This document shows, in pieces, positions 4,431 to 53,307 of a DNA stretch of 64,000 nt. Numbering within the stretch: the stretch's first letter is position 1; each line of letters opens with the position of its first letter. Source of the stretch: a virus (taxonomy: Duplodnaviria > Heunggongvirae > Uroviricota > Caudoviricetes); the IMG/VR virus record IMGVR_UViG_3300022932_000016, positions 19,906 through 83,905 of that record. One strand, given 5' to 3'. The notes under the pieces are model-generated. The model was not told where the DNA came from, did not search any database, and saw only the letters and a list, made by a program, of their open reading frames with translations. Made by a program: the position numbers and the translations under genes.

Positions 4431-4739
4431 TTAGTTAGCTGAGAGTTCTTTCTCTGCCATGTTGTTAAAGGCTTGTAGAACATTGATTGGTGAAGCGTCG
4501 AGTGCTTCTTCAATTGACACCTTGTGGTCTACTGGTGTGATGAGTCCGTAAACGAACTGTTGCATCTTGTTCGAAACAGCTTGTTTTTCTTCGTCTGTGC
4601 TTGCTGCGTCAAGTTCTTTTTGAATAGCTTGGTTAGCTTTCAACTCAGACACTAATGGTCGTCGAAAATCGAATACTTTACCGTCGATCTCGAATGCGAA
4701 CGATTTGCTAATGTTGTCTGATAGATTGTACTGTGACAT
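4431..4739 (-). CDS. tail assembly chaperone (G-like)
   Basis: About 100-aa acidic protein between the major tail protein and TMP, which is the conserved synteny. Confidence 0.5.
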   Translation of the reverse strand: MSQYNLSDNISKSFAFEIDGKVFDFRRPLVSELKANQAIQKELDAASTDEEKQAVSNKMQQFVYGLITPVDHKVSIEEALDASPINVLQAFNNMAEKELSAN

Positions 4740-4861
4740 CTTGTGTTAGTCTCCTTTGGACTTAGTTGTATTTCATCTCTAATTATATAGATTTGATAAA
4801 AACAGCACCCCCGATAGCGCAATGCCATCGAGGGTTAGTGTTTGATCTTCGAGAGCTATGA

Positions 4862-5362
4862 TTAGCTGTCGACGGTAGTGTCGCCACCACCAAGGATCTG
4901 TGCAACTGCTTCGCCTTGGCCAGGTTGACCTGTGAATGCTACAGTAATTGTAAGCAATGCACCGTCTTGCATGTCGATTGAGCTTAGTGTTGCCACCGCG
5001 CTGTTAATACGAACTGCTAGGTTACCAGTACAGTCAAGGATATCGAGGTCGTTTGCGATGTCTTCTTCAGAACATGCAGCAGGAACGATGTCGATAGCAC
5101 CATCAGCGTTGGTAACTTCTTGACCTGTTGAGAGAATCTCACCGTTGGCTTTGAAGTATTGTGGGAGTACGGCTGCAACTGATGATGGTGTAAGACCACG
5201 TAGTTGAAGCTCTACAGATGCTTTAATACCTGTAGTAATGGTTGATGTACGACCGTCAATTGTTGTGTAGTCGTTAGACGTAACATCAAATGATGGGCTG
5301 TAATCCATAACGTCGGTAATGGTTGTCGCACCAAATCGTACAGTGAAAGGACCTTTAAACAT
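4862..5362 (-). CDS. major tail (tube) protein
   Basis: 166-aa protein directly upstream of chaperones and TMP, downstream of head-tail joining genes. Composition resembles siphovirus tail tube proteins. Confidence 0.65.
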   Translation of the reverse strand: MFKGPFTVRFGATTITDVMDYSPSFDVTSNDYTTIDGRTSTITTGIKASVELQLRGLTPSSVAAVLPQYFKANGEILSTGQEVTNADGAIDIVPAACSEEDIANDLDILDCTGNLAVRINSAVATLSSIDMQDGALLTITVAFTGQPGQGEAVAQILGGGDTTVDS

Positions 5363-5379
5363 ATTTTTGTGTTTCCTTA

Positions 5380-5811
5380 TTAACTTTCTATATTTGGCGC
5401 GCTATTAGGCGCTCTGTATAATTGAACATTTACAGTGAGCAAGCCAGTTTGAAGTTCTTCGCTGTCAATGTCTTGACTTGAAGCAAACTGAGATGTAGAC
5501 ACGTAGTCTATATCAAACCCCTCAAGGTGAAAGCAGTCTTTCGCGTTCAATCGTTCTTCGAGGTTGAATAGAGTTCTATCAACGTCTTTGTTCGATGTGT
5601 CGCGGTACTGTACCTGTATTAGATACTGTTTTACTACTTCACCCGTGATAAGTCTTCGCACTGTTTGACCACCGTTGGTTGTGATAACAAAGCTATCTGC
5701 TGGGGCTTTCAGCGGTATTCGGTTGATAAACAAGTTATTGCCGAACGCACCGTAACCTTCGATTTCTAGCCACTGTACAAATGATTCTGATACGGTTACT
5801 GGGTCTGTCAT
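5380..5811 (-). CDS. tail terminator / tail completion protein
   Basis: Synteny: lies between the HK97 gp10-like gene and the major tail protein. 143 aa. Confidence 0.45.
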   Translation of the reverse strand: MTDPVTVSESFVQWLEIEGYGAFGNNLFINRIPLKAPADSFVITTNGGQTVRRLITGEVVKQYLIQVQYRDTSNKDVDRTLFNLEERLNAKDCFHLEGFDIDYVSTSQFASSQDIDSEELQTGLLTVNVQLYRAPNSAPNIES

Positions 5812-6173
5812 ATCGCGTCCATCATTGTTATGTCTAGTATAATCATAGCTTCGTCACCCTTTGCCACCTTGTTGATAGCGTTCTTCGCAAAGTCTTTACC
5901 TGTCCCAGGTGTTGTGTACCTGTGGATCTCGGTTCCGTCTGATGCGATACCTTCTTCTTGGTCACCTGCGTATGGTTCTGACCACTCAACTGAAACTTGG
6001 CGTTGGCCAGCTTTTGTTGGGTGAGCTGAGTTACGTAGGGCACCAGTCTTCTTCGGAGTGTTTGGGTCAGCTTCACGTATGACCGCTTCTGCGATCTGTA
6101 CGAGGGCTACCCCGAAGTGGTTGTCGATACTATCACCGATAACCTGTGCGTTGATATTCTTTACTAACGGCAT
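5808..6173 (-). CDS. HK97 gp10-like head-tail joining protein
   Basis: TGALRNS motif matches the DTGxLRNS signature of the HK97 gp10 family. Position within the connector module. Confidence 0.6.
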   Translation of the reverse strand: MPLVKNINAQVIGDSIDNHFGVALVQIAEAVIREADPNTPKKTGALRNSAHPTKAGQRQVSVEWSEPYAGDQEEGIASDGTEIHRYTTPGTGKDFAKNAINKVAKGDEAMIILDITMMDAI

Positions 6174-6174
6174 A

Positions 6175-6561
6175 TTATGATTCCTCTGGGTCTGGTAGGT
6201 CTGCGATTGCTTTAACTTTCGTTAAGAAGCAGTGCACGTTGTCTACGTTGTTAGCGAGTAACTTTCGTTGCCCCACTACTACGCGAGAGATACGGTACCA
6301 AGCGTCTGATTCATCACCACCGAACAGGTTAGCGACTATGTACAGACCTTCGAGACGGTAGGCGTTCGCAAGAACGATTGGGTCTTTCGGGTTTAAGTAC
6401 ACATGAGCGTCTGCTGCGTGTTCTTCGGCACTTGCCGTTTGCAAATATGAGCCACCTAGGTGAAACAATGACTTAACCGTTTGGTTTATAACGACGGTCT
6501 TATCGTTGTACCCATCTGTATCAACGTCGATTAGCTTAATTGAGTCTTTGTAGCTTATCAT
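6175..6561 (-). CDS. head closure / head-tail adaptor protein
   Basis: 128 aa. Synteny between the gp6-like and gp10-like genes. Confidence 0.5.
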   Translation of the reverse strand: MISYKDSIKLIDVDTDGYNDKTVVINQTVKSLFHLGGSYLQTASAEEHAADAHVYLNPKDPIVLANAYRLEGLYIVANLFGGDESDAWYRISRVVVGQRKLLANNVDNVHCFLTKVKAIADLPDPEES

Positions 6562-7334
6562 CGTACAGGCACCCTATTACGCTTAGCCCCGTTAGGACCA
6601 GCGAATAGAGCAACTGTGGCTGAATGATCGCTACTGCTAATTGGGGTTACTGGTTTGTCAGTCTTTGACCAACTGTGACCGTCAACTGATTCAGAAGTGA
6701 TGTTACCCATCGCTGCTGAGTTGTTTGGGTCTAGTCGGTAGTCAACCATGTCTGCAAGCAGATACATGATTGCTGGGTCTGACGCTACGTCGTGGTAATC
6801 TGCATCGACTGCGAGGGCTAGTTTCACTTGCTTCGGGTGACCTACTTGAAATAGAGTCGTGAAGTTAGCGATTACTGTAGGGTCATAAGACCACCCAGGA
6901 ACGTCGATTTCGATCCACTTGCCCCAACCGTTACCCATGTACTGAGGTATTGCTCCTACGAGATCGTCGAGAGTAATGAAACTCTCATTGTCGAGTACGA
7001 GGACCAACTTAGCTCGGTACGCTGTGTCGAATGGTTGTACGAGTGCAAACTTATCTTTGAGCTCAAGCGGAAACACCATCACATCACCGATAGGTTCGTC
7101 AGCAGGCAATAAATTGTCGATGACTTCTTGGGTGACAGGTAGTGTTTGACCGATGGAGAACCCGTTGTATTGGGTCTTACCAAGCTCACTGTAAATGTTC
7201 GTTTGTGGCGTCAGAGAGTAACCTAGAGCAGACTCAAGCTCAACGGTTGCACGAGCGATTGCTGCGAGAACCATATTTTCGTCTTCGTCAGATACAGTGT
7301 TTCCCGTAAGCTGTTCGTACTGTTCTATAGTCAC
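6558..7334 (-). CDS. head-tail connector (gp6-like N-terminal region) with C-terminal extension
   Basis: Immediately downstream of the capsid gene. N-terminus (EQYEQLTGNTVSDEDENMVLAAIARATVELESALGY) resembles gp6/gp15-type connector proteins. At 258 aa it is longer than usual. Confidence 0.45.
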   Translation of the reverse strand: MTIEQYEQLTGNTVSDEDENMVLAAIARATVELESALGYSLTPQTNIYSELGKTQYNGFSIGQTLPVTQEVIDNLLPADEPIGDVMVFPLELKDKFALVQPFDTAYRAKLVLVLDNESFITLDDLVGAIPQYMGNGWGKWIEIDVPGWSYDPTVIANFTTLFQVGHPKQVKLALAVDADYHDVASDPAIMYLLADMVDYRLDPNNSAAMGNITSESVDGHSWSKTDKPVTPISSSDHSATVALFAGPNGAKRNRVPVR

Positions 7335-7409: not shown

Positions 7410-9695
7410 TTAGCTTTCTGAGCTAGAGATTGAGGCAACAAGTTCTGGTTCTGTAACAACACCACCACGGAAGAATGATCCACGGATCACAACTTCGTTG
7501 CGTTGGAATGCTGAACGAACTTCACCAGCTACTTCGTATGATGCACGACCGTCTACGTCGTATGAGAGACCACCAGATGTTCGTCCTGTGAATGCGCTCA
7601 TGTCTGCGTAGAAGATTGGGTCAGTAACAGTAACCGCTACACCGTGTACTAGGAAAGTACGAGTGTCACCTGCGTTAAGCGTAGGTAGAAGGTCGCTAGG
7701 AACTGTTACGAAAGATGTACCGAATACTGAACCAGCGTTCAATTCAGCAACAAGACCGAAGTTTTGTTCTGTGATTGCTGATCGTAGGATTGCAGCCTTA
7801 GTCTTGTTTGATAGGATCAACTTACCAACAGTTGTGCTGTCAGCAGCTTCGGCTACAGCTTCTGCTAGGTCAGCAGTGCTTCCTGAGAACTCAACTGTTT
7901 GACCAGTCGCGTTAACAGCTTGTTGTAGACGAGCGATAACAAGTTGTGCGCGCTTTTTGTCGTAGTCGTTTGTGAATTGCTTAGCAATGTCACGCATGAT
8001 GTCAACAGCAGCGAACTTGATTGTTGCAAGTGCTACAGCTGTAACGTATGCAAGTTCTTCTAGTTCGTCGTCGTGTGGCGCGAAAGTTGGTTCACCGTAT
8101 GGCTTCAATAGGTCGTCGTCGTCGATTGGACCAGTTGTTAGGCCACCTGAGTAACCAGTTGATACGTTTTGCATGTCAACTGTAGTACCACGTGATAGCC
8201 ATGCGAACTTGATCGCGTCAGTTTCACGCCAGTCAGTTGCTTCAAGTAGTGCAGAGTAGCTGTTTAGCTTACCTTGTACTTCAGAAAGAACTTCAGGACC
8301 GATAACTAGGTTACCGAGGTCTTCTAGCTTGATTGAGTTTTCTACTTTACCAGCTTCTACAAGTGCGTCGTAGTTAACCTTGTTGATAGCACGCAATTCG
8401 TTGTATGCTTCTACGTTAAGGTCGCGTGTTGATGCAATAGCAAGAGCAAGTTGGTTCTTGATTGTAGCGTTTTTGCTTACAGGAGCTTCTTCAACAAACT
8501 CAGTTTCTTCAACTTGAGCGTCAAGGGCGTTCTTCACAGCTGCGTCAATCATAGCTTGTGCTTCTTCTTTTGTCATTTCAATTTCCTTTTTATTTTCTGT
8601 TTTTTCTTCAACAACTTCTTCAGTCGCTTCCACCTCTTCGGTTTCAGTTTCTTCAGTTCCGTTGTCGACTGTTTCGCTTGCTTCGTTGTCGCTTACGTCA
8701 ACCTTGATGGTGATTTCTGCGTCATCGTCTTTAGCGAGTTCAGCTTCCCATCGAGCTTCTCGAGCTTGACGTTCTGCTTTTTCCTCTTCTGTTTCGATGT
8801 ATTCGCTAGTGCGAGTGGTAGTGACCGTTTCGATCCATGTACCGTTCTCAGCTTTTTCGCGAGTAGTTTCTTCGACAGTTTCGGCTTCTGCTTCAGGTGT
8901 TTCAACTTCAGCTTCAGCTACTTCTTCAGCAACTTCTTCTTCGGCTTCAACTTCTTCGGCTTCTTTTTCGGCTTCGATTTCTTCTGCAACGACTTCGGTA
9001 TCTTCTTCAGGTACTTCAACCACTTCAGGGACTTCGACAACCTTTGTTTCTTTATCTTCTACTTCTGCAGGGGCTTCATTGAGTTTAACTTCAACGAACT
9101 CTTCAGTAGCTTCAGAAATCTTTGTTTCTTTTGCCATATTTTCCTCTTTAGGTGCGATTACTAATTTTTCCTCTAGTCCGTCGACTTTGAGACCCTCAGC
9201 TTTCGCTTTTTCTAAGGAATTGTGGACAGTTTCGTTAAACGAGTTAACGTGTGCGTTATAGTTGTTAGGAGTAACTACTTGACTTAACCCACAAAGCTCA
9301 GCGTTATTGTAGATGCCAGTATCAGGATCAAGGCGACCGAGAGTTTCAATACTAAAGCTGTTAGAGAAACCACCGACCAACAGGTCGTACGCAACTTTAG
9401 CGTATGCGTTTTCTTTAACTGCGTAAATAATCTTCTCAACAGTAACTTTGTTGCCAGATTTCTTAACACCAACAGTTTTTCCAATAAGACTTCGCAATGT
9501 GTCGTCGTGATCGGCAGTAAGCTGGTTACCGTAATCTTCGAGGCTCATTGAATCAATGTCGTATCGTGTGCCGTTGCGTTGCGTAGAATCGTCAGTAATA
9601 GTTAGACCGTTCGGGAATGATACAACGCCATCTCCCTCATCCGTGAAACCGCCTACTTCGGCAGTGACAACGTAACTATTTCTACTTTTTTCCAC
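7410..9695 (-). CDS. prohead protease - scaffold (Glu-rich coiled coil) - HK97-fold major capsid protein fusion (761 aa)
   Basis: N-terminal ~150 aa has an S78-like prohead protease pattern (ADHDDTLRSLIGK...GGFSNSFSIETLG). It is followed by a ~200-aa E/K/V-rich low-complexity region. The C-terminal ~320 aa is HK97-type MCP-like (DWRETDAIKFAWLSRGTTVDMQ...). One continuous ORF downstream of the portal. Confidence 0.8.
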   Translation of the reverse strand: MEKSRNSYVVTAEVGGFTDEGDGVVSFPNGLTITDDSTQRNGTRYDIDSMSLEDYGNQLTADHDDTLRSLIGKTVGVKKSGNKVTVEKIIYAVKENAYAKVAYDLLVGGFSNSFSIETLGRLDPDTGIYNNAELCGLSQVVTPNNYNAHVNSFNETVHNSLEKAKAEGLKVDGLEEKLVIAPKEENMAKETKISEATEEFVEVKLNEAPAEVEDKETKVVEVPEVVEVPEEDTEVVAEEIEAEKEAEEVEAEEEVAEEVAEAEVETPEAEAETVEETTREKAENGTWIETVTTTRTSEYIETEEEKAERQAREARWEAELAKDDDAEITIKVDVSDNEASETVDNGTEETETEEVEATEEVVEEKTENKKEIEMTKEEAQAMIDAAVKNALDAQVEETEFVEEAPVSKNATIKNQLALAIASTRDLNVEAYNELRAINKVNYDALVEAGKVENSIKLEDLGNLVIGPEVLSEVQGKLNSYSALLEATDWRETDAIKFAWLSRGTTVDMQNVSTGYSGGLTTGPIDDDDLLKPYGEPTFAPHDDELEELAYVTAVALATIKFAAVDIMRDIAKQFTNDYDKKRAQLVIARLQQAVNATGQTVEFSGSTADLAEAVAEAADSTTVGKLILSNKTKAAILRSAITEQNFGLVAELNAGSVFGTSFVTVPSDLLPTLNAGDTRTFLVHGVAVTVTDPIFYADMSAFTGRTSGGLSYDVDGRASYEVAGEVRSAFQRNEVVIRGSFFRGGVVTEPELVASISSSES

Positions 9696-9842
9696 GTTTC
9701 TATTCCTTTTTTGTTTTAAGGGACGTTTTTTGTGTAAAACTTTTGTTTGTTTCTTTTACGAAGACCATTCGCAGTGTCTGTGCATGACCTCTATACGTTC
9801 TTCTAGTTGTATTATACATATTATTGTTTTATGATAGTTTCA

Positions 9843-10301
9843 ATGACTACCGAAGACCTCGAGCAGACAATTATTAAAGGCATTTTTACGCTGGGCAATC
9901 ACATCTTGATTTCACCAGAGTGTTTACACATGCGAAAAGAGTTAGTTGACGACAACCGTATCATGCTTTGTCGCAACGTCATACTGTATATCGACAAGAA
10001 CGGTATCACCGAGAACTTCCCACAAGCTCGCTACGAGATGAGACCACTAGCTTTTGCAACACTTATGACACCAGTATGCGACATCACCATAAGTCAAGGT
10101 GAAGTGTACTCTATAAGTTACAAGCATGTTCACGAAGTCGGGGTGTTCCCACAGAGTATCGACATCGAAGAGGTGCTAACAGAGGTAGATCGCGTCGCTT
10201 TCACGTTTGACGCAGAGTTTAACACCGCTCGAGTGCTGCGATTGTCGCGACACAAGCTAGACCCACGGTTTAACCAGCCAAAACGCTCTCTTATTGAATA
10301 A
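9843..10301 (+). CDS. hypothetical protein
   Basis: ORF on the strand opposite the flanking structural genes. Start chosen at the internal ATG (MTTEDLEQ). Confidence 0.45.
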   Translation: MTTEDLEQTIIKGIFTLGNHILISPECLHMRKELVDDNRIMLCRNVILYIDKNGITENFPQARYEMRPLAFATLMTPVCDITISQGEVYSISYKHVHEVGVFPQSIDIEEVLTEVDRVAFTFDAEFNTARVLRLSRHKLDPRFNQPKRSLIE

Positions 10302-10327
10302 AACCTATTGCGTTTTCTGTATATACG

Positions 10328-10516
10328 TTGTACGATATGTATATGTATACCGAAGAAGACTACGCAACAGTTGAAGCTATGACCATCTTTGGTGGTTCGT
10401 TCGTTGTCGCACTCGCCCATGCGTGTCGACAAGCTGACGCGGTTAACCTAGCGAAAATTAAAGCAACGTGGCCAGAATACTGGGCTGAGTATTCAGAAAT
10501 GAGCAAGAACTTATGA
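10328..10516 (+). CDS. hypothetical small protein
   Basis: ORF only. Confidence 0.3.
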   Translation: MYDMYMYTEEDYATVEAMTIFGGSFVVALAHACRQADAVNLAKIKATWPEYWAEYSEMSKNL

Positions 10517-10663
10517 GCAAGACACACCAAGAGAAACTAGAAAAGCTACACTGGTGGCGTAATTACTGGTTGATGATGATATTTATTATGCTGACAGCTA
10601 TAAACTTCACTCTCGCGCTGAACCTGAGCGCGATTACTGCGGCACTGAGGTATTTATAATGAA
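10514..10663 (+). CDS. small membrane protein (single TM, 49 aa)
   Basis: Read directly from sequence: MSKTHQEKLEKLHWWRNYWLMMIFIMLTAINFTLALNLSAITAALRYL. Start overlaps the upstream stop and its end overlaps the next ATG. Confidence 0.3.
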
Positions 10664-11027
10664 CGACAGCGAATTATTTAGTAACAACTTTGGTAAATGG
10701 TGCGAAGCACACGGTATTGAGCTTAGTAGCACGATACACGTAGAAGGTAAGTTTGCTGCTTTGGTCGATTTGAACCAGTTAAAAGAAGCTATTATGCGGT
10801 TTACTGATGAGCAAACGACCATTGAAGTCGAAGACGTGAAAAGTGAGCTGCTATTTGATCTTGATGAGATTGATAACAAACCTTGGCGCGTCTTCAGACA
10901 ACTTGGTGCGATTATGCCAGAATACAAGGACGAGTACCTACGATACGAGCACTTCTACATGCACGGTGGTAGCAAAGATGTAATGAAACTAATTGAAGAT
11001 TTTGAGAAGGAGCACCCAATAGTATGA
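10659..11027 (+). CDS. hypothetical protein
   Basis: ORF with translationally coupled neighbours. Confidence 0.45.
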   Translation: MNDSELFSNNFGKWCEAHGIELSSTIHVEGKFAALVDLNQLKEAIMRFTDEQTTIEVEDVKSELLFDLDEIDNKPWRVFRQLGAIMPEYKDEYLRYEHFYMHGGSKDVMKLIEDFEKEHPIV

Positions 11028-11197
11028 CCTTAGTACGATTTAGAATTACCCAAACCCTCTTTGGTTATGTTGACCGAGAGATTGGCGACCAAGACCCAGA
11101 CGAATACGCAGACGAGCTTATCGAAGAGGGTCTCACCTCACGCGACTTCAACGTAATGGGTGACGACACCGAAGTAGACAGCTGGGACAAGCTATAA
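11024..11197 (+). CDS. small acidic protein (57 aa)
   Basis: ATG overlaps the upstream TGA (GTATGA). Read from sequence. Confidence 0.3.
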   Translation: MTLVRFRITQTLFGYVDREIGDQDPDEYADELIEEGLTSRDFNVMGDDTEVDSWDKL

Positions 11198-11200
11198 CAA

Positions 11201-11659
11201 ATGATCTCGTCAAAAGAACGTGAAAAACTTCGCGAAGACCTGTTAAAGGTTAGATTTCTTCACCCTAAGAAGTGCTTAGAGGAGTGTGTCTGTGGTCGCG
11301 ATGAGTTACTATGGTCTATTGACGAGTACACCGAGTTAGTTACTGCCGAGCGGGTGCGTTTCGCAGAGAAGAAGGCAGAAGACTACGGTGCGATATTGCA
11401 ACGTATGGGAGCGAACAAATGCGCGACTTGCAAAGACTACATGGCAGAAGCTGATGAAGTCTATTGTGACAGTTGCGATGATATTATTCACCTCAAGTGT
11501 GCAGGGTTCACTACTACAAGTAGCGCGTACGATGATGACGGCACCGTTCTATGTGTCGATTGCAAGAAGAAGGAAGAAGAGCGAATAGAAAACGAGCCCA
11601 TCGAAATGGACCCGTGGGGGAGCACAGAAAGTATCTTTGACGATAACTTACCGTTTTAG
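11201..11659 (+). CDS. zinc-finger protein with PHD-type C4HC3 spacing
   Basis: CATC-x11-CDSC-x4-H-x2-C-x17-CVDC, plus an upstream CLEECVC cluster. Confidence 0.55.
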   Translation: MISSKEREKLREDLLKVRFLHPKKCLEECVCGRDELLWSIDEYTELVTAERVRFAEKKAEDYGAILQRMGANKCATCKDYMAEADEVYCDSCDDIIHLKCAGFTTTSSAYDDDGTVLCVDCKKKEEERIENEPIEMDPWGSTESIFDDNLPF

Positions 11660-13326
11660 GCTTTTACAGCGATTTTTTGTTTTGAGTAACGCTTTGTTAC
11701 TTCTTTGAGCGCGGCTTCTGTGTCGTCGAACAGTACAGTCAATAGTTTGACGTACCCGTTTTCGAACTTACCGAAGATGTCGGTAGTGCCTGATACTTCA
11801 CCGTCTTTAGCTTCAATACCGTTAAGGGTAATGATTGTGGTTTCATCTTTTACTGACGAGTTAATCATAGCGACAGGGTTATCTTCTTGCGCGAACTCGA
11901 TTTCAAGTTCAGGTAAGAATTGACGAATAGGGACTTTGTTAGTAGCGATTTCTACTAGGTCATCATCAGCCAGCTCGTTGAGGTTGTAAGTAACTTCTTT
12001 GGTGGTGTTTTCTTCAATGTCTTCGTCACCTCGGTCAGGACCGCCATCTACGTCACCATCGTTGCCGTCATCTGCAGTTGTCGCGTCTGGCTTACCAAGG
12101 TCGGTAACTTCGATTTCACCGCGCGCGAACTTTGAAGCCACGTCTGCAGCATAACCAGCATCAGTTAGAGCCTTCATTACGTCGAACTCAGCTTGTCGTA
12201 CTTCGACTGCCGCTTTTGCAGCGTCTTGGTCTGATTCAAGTGGGTTATCTAGAGCCATTTCGTAGTGGGTTTTGTCCCACTCGTCTTTGTAGTGTGTTCG
12301 GTAGTCGAGGTTCAATGCGTCAATGATTGTTTCGATCTGAGGCATAATCGCGTTTTCTGTGAAGTCGTCTTTTTGTGTACGAGATACTTCGCGACCAGTA
12401 CCAGATTCTTCCATACCCATGAGTGTCTTAGACACGCCACCGATAGCGAATAGGTTGTCGAGGTGAATCTTGTTAATGTCCGCTAGTGCCGCTTTGTCAA
12501 GGTCTTGTTGCATGTCGACCCAGTCAACAGTACCGCTACCGTTACCGAAGATTGGTTCACCCTTGTTGTGGTTCTGAAGACGTGAAACAAAGTTCGCAAA
12601 GTCTTCTTCTTCTAGTTCGATTGAAGTAGAGATGATACCAGGAGTATTAAGGTTACCTTGAATAGCCTGTCGAGCGTAGTCAGAGGCTTGCTTCATTGTA
12701 AACTGAGCATCGCGAGCCGCGTCTGCCATTGAGAAGTGACCGTTACTATTGAACGGGTCCATGAGACTGATAGGGATAATCATATCCTTGTGTAGCTCAC
12801 GGGTCTTCCCGTTTCGAGATTCGATGTAGCCACCGAGTTCACCAGTTTCGCTGTTGATGACCTTGCGTACGTTGTACGGGTTCAAAAGTGAGAATGATTG
12901 TACTGCACCTAAGTGACCGTCAGCGTATACACGTCGAGCTGCGTAGAGGTAGAAAACCCCTTCAAGGTCGAGGTATGTAGAGATGTTATACCAGAACACT
13001 CGTTCAGAGAAGTTCTTTGATTCACGGATAAGAGGAAGGTAAGGGTGAACTACCGCAGTCTTGTCGTGATTCGCTGCTTCAAGGACTTTCTTAGAAGCGT
13101 TTGTGTAGATGTTGCGCTTGCCGATGACAGCTGTTCGGTTAGCGCGTCGAGTAATAACAGCATAACCGAAGTCGCTGTACATGTCTTTGTCTGTAATCGT
13201 TGTAGCTGACCAAGACGGAGACATAGTTCGCCCGCCATTCCGAAGAAAGTCAGTCGATAAATTGTTCTTTGTCTTTGCTACGGCCGTTGCATTGGCTCTT
13301 GAAAGACTATCAAGATTTTTATTCAC
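11656..13326 (-). CDS. portal protein (HK97/SPP1-type)
   Basis: 556 aa with a portal-like core and an acidic D/E-rich C-terminal tail. Lies upstream of the capsid gene in the head module. Confidence 0.88.
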   Translation of the reverse strand: MNKNLDSLSRANATAVAKTKNNLSTDFLRNGGRTMSPSWSATTITDKDMYSDFGYAVITRRANRTAVIGKRNIYTNASKKVLEAANHDKTAVVHPYLPLIRESKNFSERVFWYNISTYLDLEGVFYLYAARRVYADGHLGAVQSFSLLNPYNVRKVINSETGELGGYIESRNGKTRELHKDMIIPISLMDPFNSNGHFSMADAARDAQFTMKQASDYARQAIQGNLNTPGIISTSIELEEEDFANFVSRLQNHNKGEPIFGNGSGTVDWVDMQQDLDKAALADINKIHLDNLFAIGGVSKTLMGMEESGTGREVSRTQKDDFTENAIMPQIETIIDALNLDYRTHYKDEWDKTHYEMALDNPLESDQDAAKAAVEVRQAEFDVMKALTDAGYAADVASKFARGEIEVTDLGKPDATTADDGNDGDVDGGPDRGDEDIEENTTKEVTYNLNELADDDLVEIATNKVPIRQFLPELEIEFAQEDNPVAMINSSVKDETTIITLNGIEAKDGEVSGTTDIFGKFENGYVKLLTVLFDDTEAALKEVTKRYSKQKIAVKA

Positions 13327-30839: not shown

Positions 30840-33800
30840 CTACGAGTAGGTCGCAGTAGCTCTGTTGTCCCATGAGTCGATGGCTGTCATTACCACGACT
30901 GGTGAAGTTAATGTTAATCGAGTGAGTGACCAACCACTTGTGGCTTCAGAAGTCGCAGAAGGTGCTGAACCCATGTAATCGTAGATACCAGATTGAGCGT
31001 GACGAATCTCACCTAATCCACCACCACCGCCCCCACCTGCTGAAGGAGCCCAGCGCAAACCATTTGTTGCGGTTGAGTCAGCGGTTAGAACGTAAGCGTC
31101 TGCACCGATTGGTAGAGGGACGGAGTTACCGACTGGGTTACCAACAACCACGTCACCCTTTGCGGTTGTAACCGCGCCACCAGCAACACCCGTGGCACCT
31201 ACTGGACCAGTATTACCAGTAGAACCGACTAGACCGTTTGGACCAGTCGCACCGATTGGACCAGTAGCACCAGGATCACCCTGCACACCTTGCACACCAG
31301 TGAAACCACGTAGACCTGAAGCACCCGATGGGCCAGTAGCCCCAGTTGGACCCGTTACGCCCGCACCAGTTGCACCCTGTGGCCCAGTAGCACCACCAGG
31401 AGAACCAGCAACACCAGTCGCACCTGCAGGGCCAGTCGCACCATTTGTACCAGCGACCCCTGTTGCACCACGTGGACCAGTTGCACCCACTGGGCCTTCT
31501 GCTGAGTTAGGGACGTAGATGAATGTGTAATCGTTGTTTGAGAACGCTGTACCTGACACTGGGGTAATATCTAATAGATACCAACCAGATTGAGGTACGA
31601 TGTCGTTGACTGCGATGACGTTCATTTGTGGTGAGCCCGCTGTTCGGTGCATGTATAGGTAACCCTTTGGAGATACCGTAGATGAATCAATCAATGTAAA
31701 TAGAGCAGAGCGGTCTTGACTAGCAGCATCAAGCGTGTCCATACGTAGCTTCGTAATTGAAGCGAACGCGGCATTGTCAGATGTGAACTTTCCTGTAGTA
31801 GGGTCAGCGTCTATAGCGGTGTCACCTGTGTATGAGTATGTGAACCCAGCAACCGCACCAGTCGCACCAGTTGGGCCAGTGTAACCTAATGCACCAAGAC
31901 CACCAGATACACCCGTAGCACCGACTGGACCAGTCGCACCTGTTATACCAGTAGCACCTGTTGAACCAGAACCAGTGGCGCCTTGTGGGCCAGTAAATCC
32001 TCGAACACCCGTTTCACCCTGTGGACCTGTCGCACCACCTGGAGTACCAGGAGTACCTGGCGTACCAGAAGCACCAGTCGCACCAATCAATAGAGCAGGA
32101 CCTAGGTCGCTCCAGTCAGAACCCGTCCAGACCCATGCGTGACCAGTATCGTTTGTAACGAAGATTTCACCGAGATTTGGTGTAGAAGGTAGAGCCGCGA
32201 AGTTTGCGACAGTACCCTTAATAATAAGACCAGGACCGATAGGACCAGTTGCCCCTGTTCGACCGATAGGACCAGTCGCACCTGTAGTACCCGCACCTGT
32301 TGAACCCGCAGGACCAGAAGGACCTGTTGGCCCAAGCACGCTACCTGTTGATTGCCAGAGTGAACCGTCCCAGATGTATAGGTCACCGTTAACGAGCCAT
32401 GCGTCACCAACTACGTTACCAGTAGAAGGCAGAGATTCAACATCAGGTTTTGACCCCTTGACTTCGATACCAACACCCGATGGACCAGTTGGACCCATTG
32501 GCCCTGTTTGACCATTTACACCGTTAGACCCTGTAGGACCTTGAATACCTGTTGCGCCCGTTCGTCCTAGAGGACCAGTTGCACCAGAAGCACCCGCGAT
32601 TCCAGCGAGACCCATATCTTGCCAAGCTGAACCGCTCCATACCCAGTTGTGCCCGTCATCTGCTGTGGTGTAGATGTCACCCGCAGTTGGGAGAGCAGGA
32701 AGTGAAGCGTAGTTAGCTACTACACCCTTGACACGTAGACCGATACCTGTCGCACCAGTGTTACCTAGGTTACCAGTAGCACCTTGTACACCCGTAAAGC
32801 CACGCACACCAGTAAGACCTTGAGGCCCTGTTGGACCAGTTGTACCTTGGTTACCTGTTGCACCCGTGAAACCGACTGTGATAGGACCGATATTGTCCCA
32901 TGTCGCTCCATTCCACAACCATGCTTCATTGTTAGGTTCGATTACAACGTAAATGTCACCTTGTTCGACACCCTCTAGACCGTAAAGGTCAAACTCCTCA
33001 ACGACAGTACCCTTAATTCGGGCACCTTCACCACGAGGACCAGTTGCCCCCGTGTTACCAGTTGCACCAGTGTTACCAGTTTGACCCTGAACACCCGTGA
33101 AACCTCTAACCCCAGTCCAACCTTGAGGACCAGTGTTACCAGACGCTCCTGTTGGACCCATAATGCGACCAACATTTTCCCAGCTGTCACCGTCCCACAT
33201 CCAGAGTTCACCATTAACCATCCAGCCATCACCGATTGTATTACCAGTAGAAGGAAGGAACTCAACACCTGTTTTTGTACCAAGAATGCGAACACCGACA
33301 CCTGTTGCCCCAGTTACACCTTGAGGACCTGTGAAACCTCGTACACCAGTGTTACCAGTTTGGCCGATTGCTCCAGTTACACCCGCACCAGTTGCACCTT
33401 GAGGACCAGTTGGGCCAACCATAGGACCGATGTCCATCCAAGAAGAACCGTTCCATGACCAACCGTGCCCCGTGTCAGCTGTAATGTAAACGTCACCCGT
33501 TGTGCCCGAGCCAGGAAGAGCTGCTGAGTTAGCAACAACACCCTTAATCGTGATACCCACACCAGTTGCCCCTGTCCCACCGATAGCACCCGTAGGACCA
33601 GATGGGCCAGTAGGACCGCTGAACCCGATGTCACCTTGCGGACCAGTAGGACCCGCGACACCAGTTGAACCACGACTGAAAGCTAAGAATGCGCCCGTAC
33701 CACCAGTACCACCATTCAATACCCATAACTCATAGTTTGAAGCACCAGTAGGCCCAGTTGTACCTTGGGGACCTGTAGCACCAGAAGGACCAGCAGGACC

Positions 33801-35501
33801 AGATTCACCTTGAACACCTTGTGGACCTGTAGCACCTGTCGTACCAGCTCCAGTTGCACCCGTGACTCCAGTGAAGCCGCGTACACCTGTTGCACCTGTA
33901 TAACCACGAACACCCGCAGGGCCAGTTGCACCTGTTTGACCTTGAGGACCTGTCGCACCAGTTCGCCCAGAACCAGTAGCACCGCTACCACCGACAGGGC
34001 CAGATGGACCTTCAGGGGCGACTGACACAATGTAGTCGTCCATTGAGATACCCTTGTAATAAATAACGTCATCGTTACCGATTTTGAATAGAGGGATTGA
34101 TCGTTCTAGGGTGAAGAAATAAGACTTAGTTTCGAGCTTGTCAGTCATCTTCACTTCGATTTGGTATGTGTTAGCTTCTGCGAATGTAGTTTCACCGTCA
34201 GCAAAGGTTGTAGCCGTGAAGTCAGGTACGGTTACGTTACCAGAAGTGTCGCTACTATTTGTAACATCGTCCCAAGAGCCCCAATCACCTGCAGTGGTTA
34301 GGTTACGAGAGCGGTATGAAACACCAGTGGTAGCATTTACCGCGTTCTTAGGTGTGCCAGAAATGGTTAGTGGTGAGAACCGACCACCGATTTGCATTTG
34401 TACTGCGTCAAAGTCGCCAGCACCTGAGTCAATACGTTCAGCATTAATGTTAAGAACTGGAGAGTTGTATGGTAGAAGATTTGCTGTCTTGCTTGCAAGG
34501 GTCATCTTGCCGCGTGAGTCTTTTGCGCTTACTTGAAAGTTGAAGTTATCACCGTAATTAGCAACGTCTAGAGAAACGTCGATGTCTTCATCGTCATAAG
34601 GAATGTTTACCGAGTTCCAAGGAGTAACAGCGAGGTACGAATCCATTGTTGCGTATTTATTCGCTGTGGCTGCTTGATCTGGGTATGTGATCGTAACGTG
34701 CGGTTCAGAGTAGCTCTGGACAAGGTATTGATCGTCACCTGTAATCGTAACAGTGTCGGGGTTGTTGTCGTAGTAGCCGAATGTAGTAAATGTAGGTTCG
34801 CCACCTACGATAGAAACAGTTCGGTCGATTGTTTGGTCAGAACCAAGACCGTTACCGATGTAGTAGCGGACAGTCGTAGAAGCGACATTCTTCATCGCAT
34901 TTCGAATTGCGTTTCGCTCAGCGGTGCTTAGTGTCCAGTTATAAGTTTGACCACCGTTCGCACCGAAGTTTCGCCATGCGTATTGAGTACCACCAGTAAT
35001 GCTAGGTAGCATGAAGAACCCAGTAACGGTGTTTCCTGCTGGGTTTGCGTAAGATACGCTAGGTGTACCCTCATCGTTGAAGTCAGAAGCACCCTGAATG
35101 TTAGGGTTACGAGGGATATTATCAAGACCGAAGTTACCACCGACATCTCGTGGGCCACCTGAGTTATTGTAGAGTGACCAACCAGAGCTGAAGTTGCCAC
35201 CGATGTAGATACCTTTTGTACCGTTGTCATCGTGTTGCACCCACGCTGAGAAAGAGTGAATGTTGTGCGTACCTGCGCCACGGGTTGTAGAACCACGAGA
35301 GAAGCTACCAACCTGACCGTTGATACTGATAGAACCAGACTCTGTGGCAGCAATTGAGGCACCACTAGGGATAATTAACTGAAGGGTGGCGTCAACACGT
35401 GAGCGGTTGTTTGGTATGTCAACGTATGAGCTCCAGACAATACGAAGCCCCCAGTTCGCGAAAGAACCTGAACCGTTACGTTGTGTTGATGAACCTGCCA
35501 T
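30840..35501 (-). CDS. tail fiber / anti-receptor protein with extensive collagen-like (G-X-Y, Thr-rich) repeats, 1553 aa
   Basis: N-terminal ~480-aa globular domain. Long GxT/GPTGP triple-helix repeats interrupted 6 times by a ~48-aa W-rich module. Conserved fiber-like C-terminus (KGDVVVGNPVGNSVPLPIGADAYVLTADSTATNGLRWAP). Confidence 0.85.
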   Translation of the reverse strand: MAGSSTQRNGSGSFANWGLRIVWSSYVDIPNNRSRVDATLQLIIPSGASIAATESGSISINGQVGSFSRGSTTRGAGTHNIHSFSAWVQHDDNGTKGIYIGGNFSSGWSLYNNSGGPRDVGGNFGLDNIPRNPNIQGASDFNDEGTPSVSYANPAGNTVTGFFMLPSITGGTQYAWRNFGANGGQTYNWTLSTAERNAIRNAMKNVASTTVRYYIGNGLGSDQTIDRTVSIVGGEPTFTTFGYYDNNPDTVTITGDDQYLVQSYSEPHVTITYPDQAATANKYATMDSYLAVTPWNSVNIPYDDEDIDVSLDVANYGDNFNFQVSAKDSRGKMTLASKTANLLPYNSPVLNINAERIDSGAGDFDAVQMQIGGRFSPLTISGTPKNAVNATTGVSYRSRNLTTAGDWGSWDDVTNSSDTSGNVTVPDFTATTFADGETTFAEANTYQIEVKMTDKLETKSYFFTLERSIPLFKIGNDDVIYYKGISMDDYIVSVAPEGPSGPVGGSGATGSGRTGATGPQGQTGATGPAGVRGYTGATGVRGFTGVTGATGAGTTGATGPQGVQGESGPAGPSGATGPQGTTGPTGASNYELWVLNGGTGGTGAFLAFSRGSTGVAGPTGPQGDIGFSGPTGPSGPTGAIGGTGATGVGITIKGVVANSAALPGSGTTGDVYITADTGHGWSWNGSSWMDIGPMVGPTGPQGATGAGVTGAIGQTGNTGVRGFTGPQGVTGATGVGVRILGTKTGVEFLPSTGNTIGDGWMVNGELWMWDGDSWENVGRIMGPTGASGNTGPQGWTGVRGFTGVQGQTGNTGATGNTGATGPRGEGARIKGTVVEEFDLYGLEGVEQGDIYVVIEPNNEAWLWNGATWDNIGPITVGFTGATGNQGTTGPTGPQGLTGVRGFTGVQGATGNLGNTGATGIGLRVKGVVANYASLPALPTAGDIYTTADDGHNWVWSGSAWQDMGLAGIAGASGATGPLGRTGATGIQGPTGSNGVNGQTGPMGPTGPSGVGIEVKGSKPDVESLPSTGNVVGDAWLVNGDLYIWDGSLWQSTGSVLGPTGPSGPAGSTGAGTTGATGPIGRTGATGPIGPGLIIKGTVANFAALPSTPNLGEIFVTNDTGHAWVWTGSDWSDLGPALLIGATGASGTPGTPGTPGGATGPQGETGVRGFTGPQGATGSGSTGATGITGATGPVGATGVSGGLGALGYTGPTGATGAVAGFTYSYTGDTAIDADPTTGKFTSDNAAFASITKLRMDTLDAASQDRSALFTLIDSSTVSPKGYLYMHRTAGSPQMNVIAVNDIVPQSGWYLLDITPVSGTAFSNNDYTFIYVPNSAEGPVGATGPRGATGVAGTNGATGPAGATGVAGSPGGATGPQGATGAGVTGPTGATGPSGASGLRGFTGVQGVQGDPGATGPIGATGPNGLVGSTGNTGPVGATGVAGGAVTTAKGDVVVGNPVGNSVPLPIGADAYVLTADSTATNGLRWAPSAGGGGGGGLGEIRHAQSGIYDYMGSAPSATSEATSGWSLTRLTLTSPVVVMTAIDSWDNRATATYS

Positions 35502-42386: not shown

Positions 42387-43781
42387 CTATTTATGTTTGA
42401 ATCGTTCGGTGCCATCTGACTTGAACGACTTGAATTGATTTGTGACACCCGCAGTGATAACCCTACCAGCGTAGAAGGTTCGCAGCAAAAAGCCATAAAT
42501 TGGCATTTCGACTGTGATTTTCTTACCGCTATCGAAGTATCGGGTGTAAATACCCCTACAAATGTCGATAATGTCTTCACGAGAGCCACCGACTACACCG
42601 CAGTTGAGTATGTGTTGGCGGTTTCGCGCGGTGAAAGTGCGATATGGTTCGACGGTTGAGTGCTGTCGCAACCATCTACTTTGTGAAGGCACACCCTGCT
42701 CGATACCAGAATAAATCTTTCCAGGTTGCATATCTCTGAACGGGTTATTGACCACCTCGACATCGGTTGAATCTACGCAGAAAACATTATCAATTTCGGG
42801 GTGCTGTTTCAGGTAGCGGTAAATGCTAAGCCACCGCTGAAAGTACGGGTTTAATACGCTTTCAACTTTTATGTGGGTGACCTGCTCGGTATCGGGTTCG
42901 TCGAAGCAATCGTGCAGAAGCACTAGCTTTTCGCCCTGCAATGAATCAATGAGCGGCTTCATCGCGCTATAGTCTGCTGACCAGTTCACCTTGCGTTGAG
43001 GGTCTTCGTGCGAAGTAAAGTAAGAAGCGATAATTACGTTATTCATTCCTGCACTATCAGACTTCTTAACCTCTCGGTAATCAATGTACTCGCTGGATTT
43101 TAGCGATTCGCGGTATAATTTCGCGTTGTTCGCGAGACCAGTTCGACGTGCGTGCTGTTCGATTGAACTTGAAACCTCTTGGTATTCGTCCATGCTGTAA
43201 ATAAGGTTCGAACTATCGGGCACGTCCATTGCTCTGAACGTAGTAAGGCCAGCGTTGAAGATGCGATTAGTCCATGCGGTGTGTTCAAACATAGAGATAC
43301 CGAATCGCGGGTCTAAGCCACCCACCTTTTCAAGCACTACCTTGTTAGCATAAATCATGCAACCGCGAGTATGCGAGTAAGCCACGATTGTGCTGTCGCG
43401 ATATATCTCAAGCATATCGGTTAGTTGTTTTGCTGGGTTATTTGCGAACTCCCGAAACTGGTACATAAGGTGGGGCTCTTCGCTATCGACGTACGGTTTC
43501 CACCAGTCTTTCACCTTTGGGTATGTGTCGTCATCGAACAGGAAGAAGTCAGTCGCACCGCGTTCTTCGAGCAATTCGAGACATTTGTTTTTGACCCTTG
43601 CGACACCACCCCGTTCAGGGAAAACGTAATCAGCTTCTTTGGGCGCATTTTCATCGTGGTCTGATACAACGACAAGCACGGCACCTTTTGGCAGATACTT
43701 TTTAATTTCTTTGTATGTTTTCTTGAAAACATCTGGTCTTTTGTAGGTTGATATTGCAACCCCGACTACAGGTTCATTCAT
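42387..43781 (-). CDS. glycosyltransferase (GT-A/GT2-like N-terminal domain plus additional C-terminal domain)
   Basis: VVGVAISTYKRPD...FLFDDDTYP (DxD). Confidence 0.65.
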   Translation of the reverse strand: MNEPVVGVAISTYKRPDVFKKTYKEIKKYLPKGAVLVVVSDHDENAPKEADYVFPERGGVARVKNKCLELLEERGATDFFLFDDDTYPKVKDWWKPYVDSEEPHLMYQFREFANNPAKQLTDMLEIYRDSTIVAYSHTRGCMIYANKVVLEKVGGLDPRFGISMFEHTAWTNRIFNAGLTTFRAMDVPDSSNLIYSMDEYQEVSSSIEQHARRTGLANNAKLYRESLKSSEYIDYREVKKSDSAGMNNVIIASYFTSHEDPQRKVNWSADYSAMKPLIDSLQGEKLVLLHDCFDEPDTEQVTHIKVESVLNPYFQRWLSIYRYLKQHPEIDNVFCVDSTDVEVVNNPFRDMQPGKIYSGIEQGVPSQSRWLRQHSTVEPYRTFTARNRQHILNCGVVGGSREDIIDICRGIYTRYFDSGKKITVEMPIYGFLLRTFYAGRVITAGVTNQFKSFKSDGTERFKHK

Positions 43782-50813: not shown

Positions 50814-51897
50814 CTAATTTAGTTTCACCACCATCGAAAAGCGTGGACCGAGATTCGTGGGGTTGCAGACTGCCATTTCGTTAATGACATCGACTGCGTA
50901 CACCTTTCCAGTGTATTTCTTCTTGATAATGTCCTCTACCTTTATTCTAGCGAACTTTGGTCTATTAACAACCAATACTATGTAGTTGTCGCGGTCAGTA
51001 ATGGTAGTTGGGTAACCTATTTTGAAGAACAGGTCTGCGAGTTGTTCAGCCAGCTCGATGTTGCTGAGAGTAAACGTAAGCGGGTCACCTTTTGATGGGA
51101 TACCAAGATCAAAATCCATTTCTGGTTTCTTGATGCGAAGTATCTCCGTAACGAATGCGTACACCGCGTCGGGCGAGGTAGAACGCATAATAACTTTGGG
51201 TAATGTTCGTGCAGACATTCTTTTGCTAATGAACTTCTTCAGAGAGCGAGCCGCACCTGCACCGCTACGAAGAATCACTAAACGCTCAAGGTTACCCTTC
51301 TTTTCAGCTACAGAGATACGGTAGGGTATATTGTTGCTGTCGAGCAAGTCCATCAAGCGGGTTGGGTCGTCTTTCTCGCGTATTCTGAACATCGTAACTG
51401 TCGAGCTACTGGTTCGGTCGTATTTGATTGAACCCCGCATAATAGCGTAAGCAAGAAACCTAAAGTATTCTACCTCGCTCATATCGACTGACCCGTTCTT
51501 AATAACGCCAGCTTGGTGACGTTTATCTTTCATACTGAACTGCAGAGGGCTTTTGACGATTGCTTGAACGTCTTTGGTGAGGGTGTTCAATTTCACTGTG
51601 TCGATTTGCTCAACTGCTATACGGTTACCCGTGAGAACGCTCTTTCGGTACAACGTCTTTCTAATAGGTAAAACGCTGTCTTCGGTGAGTGAAAAGTGGC
51701 TGATGATACCACCCTGTCGCTTAAAGATATTCACATGTTCATAAATGTATCCATCGTAATCGTACTCTGTAATGTTGAGTATCGGTGAGAATATACCGTG
51801 ACCCGCGAAGTTGGTAGTGAGAATCTCATCACCGACATTTAATTCAGTGACGTTTTTCCAACCGTCAACGGTTAACAGGTTGTTTGATGGGGTAAGC
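50814..51897 (-). CDS. Hint/intein-N-like domain protein, possible mobile endonuclease
   Basis: N-terminus (LTPSNNLLTVDGWKNVTELNVGDEILT) resembles Hint/intein block A. GTG start with AGGTGG RBS lying within the last codons of TerL. The frame differs from TerL. Confidence 0.4.
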
Positions 51898-51900
51898 ACG

Positions 51901-53307
51901 TTACCACCTGATGTATGCGCCAACAGGCTTTGGTTTGAACGCGTTGTATGCCATGTTAGCAATCATCATCGCGTCAGCCCAGTCAGGCGACCGACCGATT
52001 TTCTTGCGAAGAATGCTTTTTTTGACGACCCGCGTTTTCCCTGTGTCGAGATCGTAGGTGTGAGCAATAAGCTCTTTCTTAATTTCTGATATGTTGAAGT
52101 CTTTAGAACCCTCGAGTAGCTTCATACGTCCAGCGTCTAGGTCGAGCATAAGGTTGTAGAAGCCGTCTGAGCGCGTTTGTTGTGTCGCGATGTATACATT
52201 TACCTTCCAGCCCTTTGCGCGCAGTGCGTCGCGTGCTGAAGCCCCCACACCGTTACCCTCAATGGTGATGTACTTAGCAACTGCAGGAGTGAACCCATTT
52301 TTCATAGCAAAGTCGATGAGTTTCTCTGCAATAGCGTAGCCGATAGCTTGGTCGCTACCTTTTGGTGATTTGATTTCGATAGCTTTGACACCGACACCGT
52401 TTTCAACGAGTACCGCGATAGTTGCGTCCTTACCGCTGTCTGAAAGGTCGACACCGATTGCTTTGTTGAACTTCTCGTCTACTGGCTCGTCTAGGTCTGC
52501 TTCGAATGTCGTAGCTTTGTCGAGCAGTTTCATAGGGAACAGCGAGTCGTCGTCATCGAGATAATTCCAGTCCCCGTCAAGCAAACGCTTACGTTCTTGT
52601 GGTGGTAGCTTCTTCAAGTTTTCGATGTAGTTCGGGTCGATGAACGGGTTAGAGGTTACGGTTGCACGAATGTACACGTCGTATGCTGGCACTTTGACTC
52701 CATCTACCCAGACTTGACCGTTCTCCCACTTCTGAACTGGCCCCATACCACGCTTTTCATAAGGGTCATAGAACTCTTGACGAAGCCAGTTAGTTGAGGG
52801 GTTACACGCAAGCAGGGTTGTGCCGACTAGACCAAACTCGCGATTCATCCAGCGTCCTACACGTGAAGAAAGCACATCAACTGCGCGCTTGTCTGTTTCA
52901 CCCGCTTCGTCAACGAGTGCGATTGTAAGTTCAAGTGAACCCAGACTTTCGAAGTCAGGGTCTGATGGCTTTGCAGTTAGATCAAGAAACTGAACCCGCG
53001 AACCGTTACGATATTCAAGAAAGTTTTCACGACCGTTAATAGTGTAGTCGTCTTGGGTGATACCTAATGCGGGGTGCACCTTTGAAAGCAGTGTCGAGAG
53101 TGTTGTTTGTCGCAAGCTCATCAACTCTTTTCGAGCTAGACCAATGCGTATACCAGCGTACTTTCGTGACATAAGCGCAACAATAAGACATATAAAAAAT
53201 GACTTACCACCACCCGCACCACCACCATAAAGAATACGGGTACTTTGCGGGTTTAAGAACTCGTTATAAGCGAGCAACTGCGCGTCTGAAAATACGACAT
53301 CTGCCAT
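51901..53307 (-). CDS. terL: terminase large subunit
   Basis: Walker A (GGGAGGGKS). Nuclease motifs (GVDLSDSGKDATIAV...SPDWADAMMIA). Confidence 0.9.
   Translation of the reverse strand: MADVVFSDAQLLAYNEFLNPQSTRILYGGGAGGGKSFFICLIVALMSRKYAGIRIGLARKELMSLRQTTLSTLLSKVHPALGITQDDYTINGRENFLEYRNGSRVQFLDLTAKPSDPDFESLGSLELTIALVDEAGETDKRAVDVLSSRVGRWMNREFGLVGTTLLACNPSTNWLRQEFYDPYEKRGMGPVQKWENGQVWVDGVKVPAYDVYIRATVTSNPFIDPNYIENLKKLPPQERKRLLDGDWNYLDDDDSLFPMKLLDKATTFEADLDEPVDEKFNKAIGVDLSDSGKDATIAVLVENGVGVKAIEIKSPKGSDQAIGYAIAEKLIDFAMKNGFTPAVAKYITIEGNGVGASARDALRAKGWKVNVYIATQQTRSDGFYNLMLDLDAGRMKLLEGSKDFNISEIKKELIAHTYDLDTGKTRVVKKSILRKKIGRSPDWADAMMIANMAYNAFKPKPVGAYIRW

Follow-up and report, generated by a model that had tools for sequence, protein, structure and literature searches.

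A divergent fusion of prohead protease, acidic tether and major capsid protein, with conserved candidate internal start signals, in a family of uncultured tailed phages

The stretch of DNA analysed here, referred to as the window, comprises 64,000 nucleotides (positions 19,906 to 83,905) of IMG/VR record IMGVR_UViG_3300022932_000016, a virus of the Caudoviricetes, and carries at 7410..9695 a gene in which a prohead protease and a major capsid protein are joined in one open reading frame (ORF). The fusion gene and all of the features described within it lie on the minus strand. Its 761-codon ORF begins with GTG (9693-9695), ends with a stop codon at 7410-7412 and is preceded by an AAGGA Shine–Dalgarno (SD) core (9704..9708) 8 nucleotides upstream of the start, in the context AAAAAGGAATAGAAAC-GTG; because residues M1, K3 and N6 are conserved across homologues, we consider this start to be correctly placed. 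A first-pass annotation, made from the letters of the window and a list of its ORFs, had described a single uninterrupted 761-residue ORF, and this was confirmed, the motifs that it quoted being present at residues 61-65 (ADHDD) and 108-120 (GGFSNSFSIETLG). A search of 5.8 billion proteins identified more than 467 homologues; each of the 120 listed is of 687-806 residues, similar from end to end and of the same architecture, and the precomputed Pfam field is blank for every one of them. Related IMG/VR loci numbered 54, of which 48 are complete at the fusion gene (the rest are cut by a contig end), and all 48 contain a single uninterrupted ORF, of 622-858 residues. Over the N-terminal domain, five loci share 97-99% identity with the window, and two of these, on long contigs, indicate a genome of ~84-86 kb; genomes of the family as a whole are of ~85-100 kb and come from freshwater, human-associated and other metagenomes. 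A tblastn search of the fusion protein against 50,697 phage records gave no match, and a host search of 185,579 species genomes gave one, to an unclassified metagenome-assembled genome. The possibility that the long ORF is a tandem-repeat or low-complexity artefact was also considered, and was rejected on the grounds that the domains on either side are conserved and folded.

Residues 1 to ~170 (9186..9695) constitute a prohead serine protease domain of a divergent S78/HK97-gp4 type, assigned from fold, profile search and hhalign comparison. Conservation within the fusion family is highest over residues 1 to ~175, with column identities of 80-95%, and the invariant residues include D62, H63, D65, S111, S115, E117, E133, S138 and E162. 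The AlphaFold2 model of this domain, built from a 20-sequence alignment (predicted local distance difference test score, pLDDT, 77; predicted template modelling score 0.74), has an assemblin-like protease fold. The profile of the domain, run exhaustively with HMMER against 1.84 billion cluster representatives, recovered 292 proteins at E<=1e-3; 74 of the distant matches were aligned as an S78 comparison set, and 66 of the 74 are labelled Peptidase_S78 (Caudovirus prohead serine protease) by Pfam. The alignment of the two profiles by hhalign (99.8% probability, E 2e-28, 143 columns) places H63 opposite the His, and S115 opposite the Ser, that are invariant in NPVxLxxH and GGFxNxFSIGF, respectively, and pairs S138 and N144/145 with SxVxxPAN. 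Given the S78-labelled relatives and the pairing of the candidate catalytic residues His63 (9507-9509) and Ser115 (9351-9353), both of which are invariant in the family, we conclude that the N-terminal domain is a divergent HK97-gp4-type (S78) protease with its predicted nucleophile and general base intact.

Neither the full protein nor residues 1-180 scored above the gathering threshold of PF04586. The first-pass annotation, which had proposed the S78-like N terminus, had itself held that the lack of a protease-family match in this region would count against the proposal, and at face value the empty direct search does so; this outcome was overturned by the deeper methods, and the proposal is borne out by the fold, by the profile search with its Pfam labels and by hhalign. 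A word-indexed homologue search with the same profile returned close fragments only and no annotated relatives, and the sole match in a PDB sequence-profile search, to a glutaredoxin (E 0.14), was judged to be spurious. The prohead protease gp21 of T4 (PDB 5JBL) is 16% identical to the domain, the sequence affinity of which is with S78 and not with the T4 family; furthermore, gp21 is a free protein, whereas the protease here is fused. Stand-alone S78 relatives of 250-400 residues (e.g. P0237, P0261, P0270 and P0284) nearly all end in a basic tail resembling NKAIRxLLKxKK, and this C-terminal tail is absent from the fused proteins. In HK97, the C-terminal tail of gp4 directs the free protease into the prohead, and loss of the tail in the fusions is consistent with what would be expected if covalent tethering had replaced it.

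The C-terminal part of the fusion, residues ~456-761 (7413..8330), is the body of an HK97-fold major capsid protein, as indicated by both fold and sequence matches. Direct searching of Pfam was again without result, as neither the full protein nor residues 374-761 scored above the gathering threshold of PF05065 (Phage_capsid), but the family was reached through a relative, P0213, with which residues 422-760 share 36% identity over 371 columns (BLASTP, E 4e-59) and the aligned region of which scores 31 bits against PF05065, the cut-off being 24.2. The AlphaFold2 model of the capsid domain (11-sequence alignment) has a pLDDT of 52 overall and a confident core of ~125 residues. The top ten PDB structures matched by this model in Foldseek are all HK97-fold shells, the HK97-fold matches comprising T5, PhiTE, SaPI1/80alpha, two encapsulins, Cozz and Bas63, and a search of PDB chains with the profile of the domain gave two matches only, both of them phage major capsid proteins. 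Together with the link through P0213 to PF05065, these results uphold the HK97-fold C terminus that had been claimed from the sequence. No second capsid, protease or scaffold gene was found among the larger ORFs of the 64-kb window (of a genome of ~85 kb) or between the portal and fusion genes in other lineages. We are highly confident of the identities of the two folded domains.

Between these domains lies a hypervariable acidic linker, residues 187-373 (8577..9137), which is 34% Glu and carries a net charge of -54. Column identity within it is 5-40%, gaps reach 80%, and the spacing between the alignment columns of M187 and M374, the residues at its borders, varies from ~30 to ~250 residues among lineages; the corresponding DNA contains degenerate tandem repeats of 12, 21 and 27 nucleotides at 8878-9035. 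The linker thus behaves as a disordered acidic tether and not as a recognisable scaffolding protein. One conserved island within it, residues 279-319 (8739-8861; REKAENGTWIETVTTTRTSEYIETEEEKAERQAREARWEAE), is found in some lineages (P0001-P0003, P0005 and P0008, and partly P0081), is absent from others, and may be a small folded or binding module. The segment immediately ahead of the capsid fold, residues 374-455 (8331..8576), is conserved, and AlphaFold2 models residues 376-447 as three helices, at a pLDDT of only 26-58. Since this segment is conserved, is predicted to be helical and precedes the start of the Pfam Phage_capsid model as placed in P0213, it may be a better candidate for a scaffolding segment or propeptide like the delta domain of HK97 than is the acidic linker. 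The first-pass annotation had viewed the middle of the protein as a scaffold or delta-like segment of ~200 residues; an acidic, Glu-rich segment is indeed present there, but it is hypervariable and of low complexity, and the delta-like candidate lies downstream of it.

Two methionines, M187 and M374, fall exactly on the domain boundaries, both are in frame, and both are preceded by signals that make them candidate internal starts. For M187, the ATG (9135-9137) has a GAGGA core at 9142-9146 (whole element 9135..9149; AAAGAGGAAAAT-ATG), and for M374 the ATG (8574-8576) has an AAGGA core at 8584-8588 (whole element 8574..8591; AAAAAGGAAATTGAA-ATG), in a context close to that of the annotated start. 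Among the 120 homologues M187 is conserved in at least 90% and M374-T375 in at least 98%. Because coding sequence rich in Glu and Lys can mimic SD motifs, tests were run on the DNA of the related loci. An AGGA, GAGG or GGAG core is present at M374 in 31/31 sequences with the ATG, versus 19% of linker positions and 7.7% of positions gene-wide. Elsewhere in the fusion genes K-E is encoded as AAG-GAx in 22% of cases and E-E as GAG-GAx in 25%; 5' of the M374 ATG, and likewise at the M187 site, the codons form GGA in every case, over ~11 amino-acid contexts. We also scanned ~1,050 alignment columns in 23 lineage representatives (<80% identity) for a start codon combined with an SD core. The combination was found in 15 of 21 lineages in the M374 column and in 15 of 22 in the M187 column, and these were the only columns to reach most lineages, the next best having the combination in 3/23 and the invariant structural Met508 having an SD core in 1/23. 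When ATGs were pooled, the core was present at all 30 boundary ATGs and at 12 of 216 other in-frame ATGs, counts to which no phylogenetic correction has been applied. As a yardstick, ~35% of gene starts in the window carry the same core, versus a background of 4.8%.

Accessibility of the mRNA points in the same direction. Within 20 nucleotides on either side of the M374 ATG the folding energy is ~0 kcal/mol, versus a gene median of ~-5, and 8% of positions are as open; the annotated start ranks at 15%, so that M374 is the more open of the two. In lineages lacking a Met at the aligned column, an in-frame ATG occurs just past the protease domain, mostly with a core. The start of the full-length product is, in most lineages, a GTG or an ATG with a weak SD sequence. 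Promoter and terminator predictions across the fusion gene were at chance level (3 found, 3.1 expected) and thus lend no support to an internal promoter as the source of shorter products. From these sequence signals it appears somewhat probable that at least one internal start is functional, and we hold the same degree of belief for initiation at M374 in particular; for M187 the probability is lower. The conserved signals suggest that the gene is not expressed solely as the single polypeptide envisaged in the first-pass annotation.

By analogy with HK97, the full-length 761-residue protein would co-assemble into the procapsid via its capsid domain, which would place the tethered protease inside the shell, the covalent fusion standing in for the C-terminal tail by which free gp4-type proteases are targeted. 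Cleavage by the protease, mostly in trans, would follow once the shell is assembled, and would strip the mature capsid protein of all that precedes it in the chain. Both the co-assembly and the trans-cleavage steps we infer from HK97. Self-processing in cis, which had been thought to be implied by the fusion, does not follow from it, because HK97-type proteases act inside the assembled prohead. Internal initiation at M374 would generate a 388-residue protein, the bulk shell subunit, which would approximate in size and layout to HK97 gp5 (385 residues, delta domain and capsid body), and initiation at M187 would generate a 575-residue linker-capsid protein. The protease-carrying form, translated from a GTG or weak-SD start, would then be a minor species and protease-free capsid protein the bulk building block, a stoichiometry trick as in lambda C/Nu3 and herpesvirus UL26/UL26.5 but extended to the capsid protein. 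Protease dosage, internal filler or scaffold, and shell subunit would all be set translationally from one ORF. That three in-frame starts (the GTG or weak-SD start, ATG187 and ATG374) yield protease-tethered, acidic-linker and plain delta-plus-capsid proteins in set ratios is, in our estimation, an even chance. The explanation that best accounts for the observations as a whole, internal starts included, is that a capsid-building kit of protease, acidic tether, tentatively delta-like segment and major capsid protein is encoded in one reading frame, and we regard it as likely.

A number of observations weigh against this explanation. Searches of Pfam and PHROGs with the full protein and with residues 1-180, 181-373 and 374-761 gave no match even at E<=10. 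The capsid model is poor overall, and the fold matches depend on the ~125 confident residues plus the sequence links; likewise, the helix prediction for residues 374-455 is of low confidence. Accessibility of the mRNA is weaker at M187 (median 14%), and a separate M187 product has no evident function. The divergent lineages L045, L046 and L049 have a post-protease ATG without an SD core, and the most divergent clades are without an equivalent of M374. Finally, SD-like strings arise by chance in Glu/Lys-rich coding sequence, as the figure of 19% for linker positions illustrates, and the start and SD statistics are not phylogenetically corrected.

Of the alternatives, the one that survives best is that the 761-residue polyprotein is the only product, each subunit bringing into the procapsid a protease and an acidic tail that are later cut off, with the internal ATG and SD sequences acting as non-initiating pause sites or persisting as relics of three genes. 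That the ORF is uninterrupted everywhere is in keeping with such a scheme, as are the description of the published actinophage fusions simply as single fused genes and the lack of the SD core or of the second Met in some divergent lineages, and on a rough estimate the procapsid of a genome of ~85 kb could hold a 41-kDa propeptide per subunit. Relics, however, would not retain a bias at synonymous sites across lineages that are ~45% identical in protein, and a pause site requires neither an invariant ATG at the right spacing, nor open mRNA, nor typical M-(A/T)-K N termini; we therefore consider a pure polyprotein possible but rather unlikely. Similar evidence bears on the proposal that the surroundings of Met187 and Met374 are protease cleavage sites (for example, E/Q before the cut and M-T after it) conserved for substrate recognition. 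Both sites are exactly on domain boundaries, where maturation cuts would be expected, M374-T375 is at least 98% conserved in the protein, and T4 gp21 cuts after Glu in L/I-x-E motifs. The residues N-terminal of the Met nevertheless vary (E, Q, D, T, S, N and K), and selection on the protein cannot explain either the synonymous choice of AAG or GAG that creates the GGA core or the open mRNA, which makes this proposal improbable as a substitute for internal starts; the two readings are compatible, and one site could serve as both start and cleavage site.

We attach very little probability to the view that the N-terminal domain has a protease fold but is non-catalytic, serving as a structural or scaffolding module while maturation is carried out by another protease or does not occur. 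There is no Pfam S78 match, model confidence is low around the His63 loop and the third catalytic residue is not assignable, all of which would suit an inactive domain, but H63 and S115 align with the invariant His and Ser of S78-annotated relatives, no other part of the protein is as well conserved as this domain (column identity 80-95%), and a search of the 64-kb window revealed no further protease gene. An assembly or sequencing artefact that joined separate genes can practically be dismissed, the same three-part architecture being common to more than 467 proteins and all 48 complete loci from many independent metagenomes.

Returning to the one-frame capsid kit with internal starts, its constituents can be compared with several known systems. 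Fusions of protease, scaffold and capsid protein have been described in several actinophage clusters (Jacobs-Sera et al., 2020; PMC7302621), where they are called common in small-genome siphoviruses (Clusters AN, AX, FE, CW, DM, RRH1) and are reported for Cluster EL as well, and gp5 of the Microbacterium Cluster EE phages BurtonThePup and Anseraureola is a protease-capsid fusion (PMC7302621; PMC9671004), that of Anseraureola containing a Pfam S78 domain at 10-150 as well as a capsid domain. Like the fusions described here, those of actinophages consist of a single ORF that begins with an S78 protease and ends with an HK97-like capsid protein; the gene is flanked directly by those for the portal and the head-tail adaptor, and neither the protease nor a scaffold has a gene of its own. 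The actinophage proteins are, however, of ~530 residues, have a short linker and are recognised by Pfam, whereas members of the present family are of 620-860 residues, have a linker of up to ~250 residues and are silent in Pfam and PHROGs. The actinophage fusions are also described as typical of very small genomes of 15-17 kb (PMC7302621; PMC9671004), compared with ~85-100 kb here. Conserved internal starts are unmentioned in these descriptions of actinophage fusions (PMC7302621; PMC9671004), and the signals at M187 and M374 seem to be a new feature that goes beyond them. The fusion gene of the cultured phage Anseraureola (L056, ON108642; 3807-5393) contains four internal ATGs only; one of these encodes Met166, which falls right where the S78 domain ends, and has GAGAGGA 10 nucleotides upstream. 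Cluster EE relatives are 75-100% identical and so too homogeneous for a comparative test of starts; as an anecdote, Met166 raises the prospect that internal initiation may be general to protease-capsid fusions.

A further composite gene, the experimentally studied tripartite capsid gene of Gifsy-2 (Effantin et al., 2010, Virology 402:355; cited in PMC8538268), reportedly combines a protease with a C-terminal major capsid protein and is processed during assembly. Its protease is said to be of ClpP type, central and preceded by a domain of unknown function; that of the present family is of S78 type and N-terminal. The first-pass description of the arrangement as rare goes too far: the fusion is uncommon but well documented (PMC7302621; Gifsy-2), and the 74 distant S78 relatives include 12 Pfam capsid-domain matches (7 Phage_capsid, 5 Phage_capsid_4). 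The fusion itself is an already known arrangement, and the family described here is a divergent new family.

The gp4 and gp5 proteins of HK97 belong to the same protease superfamily and have the same capsid fold as the two domains of the fusion, and HK97 likewise has no separate scaffolding protein; unlike here, where the two are covalently joined, its protease and capsid protein are encoded by separate genes. The nested genes C/Nu3 of lambda, UL26/UL26.5 of herpes simplex virus 1 and gp17/gp17.5 of HFTV1 also encode an N-terminal assemblin-fold protease, and in each of them an internal start in the same frame yields the C-terminal part abundantly and without the protease, as shown by Ribo-seq for the archaeal virus HFTV1 (bioRxiv 10.64898/2026.09.13.751334). 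The family described here likewise has, past its protease domain, a conserved in-frame start codon accompanied by initiation signals. In the lambda, herpes simplex virus 1 and HFTV1 systems the shared part is a scaffold, the capsid gene is separate, there is one internal start and expression has been proven, whereas in the present family the capsid protein would itself be shared, there would be two internal starts, and expression is predicted from sequence.

The fusion gene is part of a head module. Upstream of it lies the portal protein gene (11656..13326, minus strand; Pfam Phage_portal, E 3e-18, and synteny) and directly downstream are head-tail connector genes (5808..7334, minus strand) encoding a 258-residue adaptor-like protein, a 128-residue protein and a gp10-like protein; the order portal-fusion-connector is syntenic in nearly all related loci. 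In the window a cassette of small ORFs (164, 62, 122, 57 and 152 residues; 9807-11659, plus strand) is located between the portal and fusion genes. The three largest have no match in Pfam or PHROGs and have homologues only in the closest clade (L001-L005), and the cassette has the appearance of an insertion in the head module that is confined to this clade. The window portal protein is of 556 residues and is without a C-terminal extension, whereas those of two other loci (L015, 91-2412; L046, 38-2188) are of 716-773 residues and do have one; on visual inspection the Cys/His motif in which it ends is reminiscent of MuF-like minor head proteins, and only the portal part is recognised by Pfam. 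Locus L015 also encodes a class-I Glu/Gln-tRNA synthetase (4480-5871, plus strand; PF00749, E 4e-92) with an anticodon-binding domain, directly upstream of a fusion gene with an extremely Glu/Pro-rich linker, an arrangement that may be fortuitous or may be an adaptation on the supply side to the translation of poly-Glu stretches. No tRNA genes were found.

The terminase large subunit gene (51901-53307, minus strand) is ~38 kb from the portal gene, so that the head and packaging module is unusually scattered. A 382-residue ORF with a TTG start (50814-51962, minus strand) overlaps the terminase gene downstream and has a weak match to Intein_splicing (E 0.006), which raises the possibility of an interruption or rearrangement in the terminase region. 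Of two further ORFs, at 53897-54811 and 42387-43781 (both minus strand), one matches a TET-associated glycosyltransferase (PF20691, E 1e-32) and phrog_842, a beta-glucosyl-HMC-alpha-glucosyltransferase, and the other is a large glycosyltransferase (phrog_1579, E 4e-124); the presence of two glycosyltransferases suggests that the phage DNA is hypermodified, possibly with glycosylated hydroxymethyl-pyrimidines. A 1553-residue tail-fibre protein with collagen-like repeat matches is encoded at 30840-35501 (minus strand), coinciding with a peak in GC content of 0.54 (window ~0.46) and with negative GC skew.

In HK97 and other well-studied phages, the packaged protease molecules are greatly outnumbered by capsid subunits. 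A strict fusion of protease and capsid protein forces a ratio of 1:1, and internal starts, if real, would resolve this question of stoichiometry. The conserved initiation signals make the fusion a plausible new variant, in which the nested-gene solution of lambda, Mu, herpesviruses and an archaeal virus would have arisen again or persisted, this time with the capsid protein included. The acidic tether, evolving by repeat slippage, is in effect a natural experiment on how much spacer the interior of a capsid tolerates. More broadly, this is a large family of uncultured phages, with more than 467 proteins, whose capsid gene is invisible to Pfam and PHROGs, and the domain alignments obtained in this study would enable annotation pipelines to detect both its major capsid protein and its protease.

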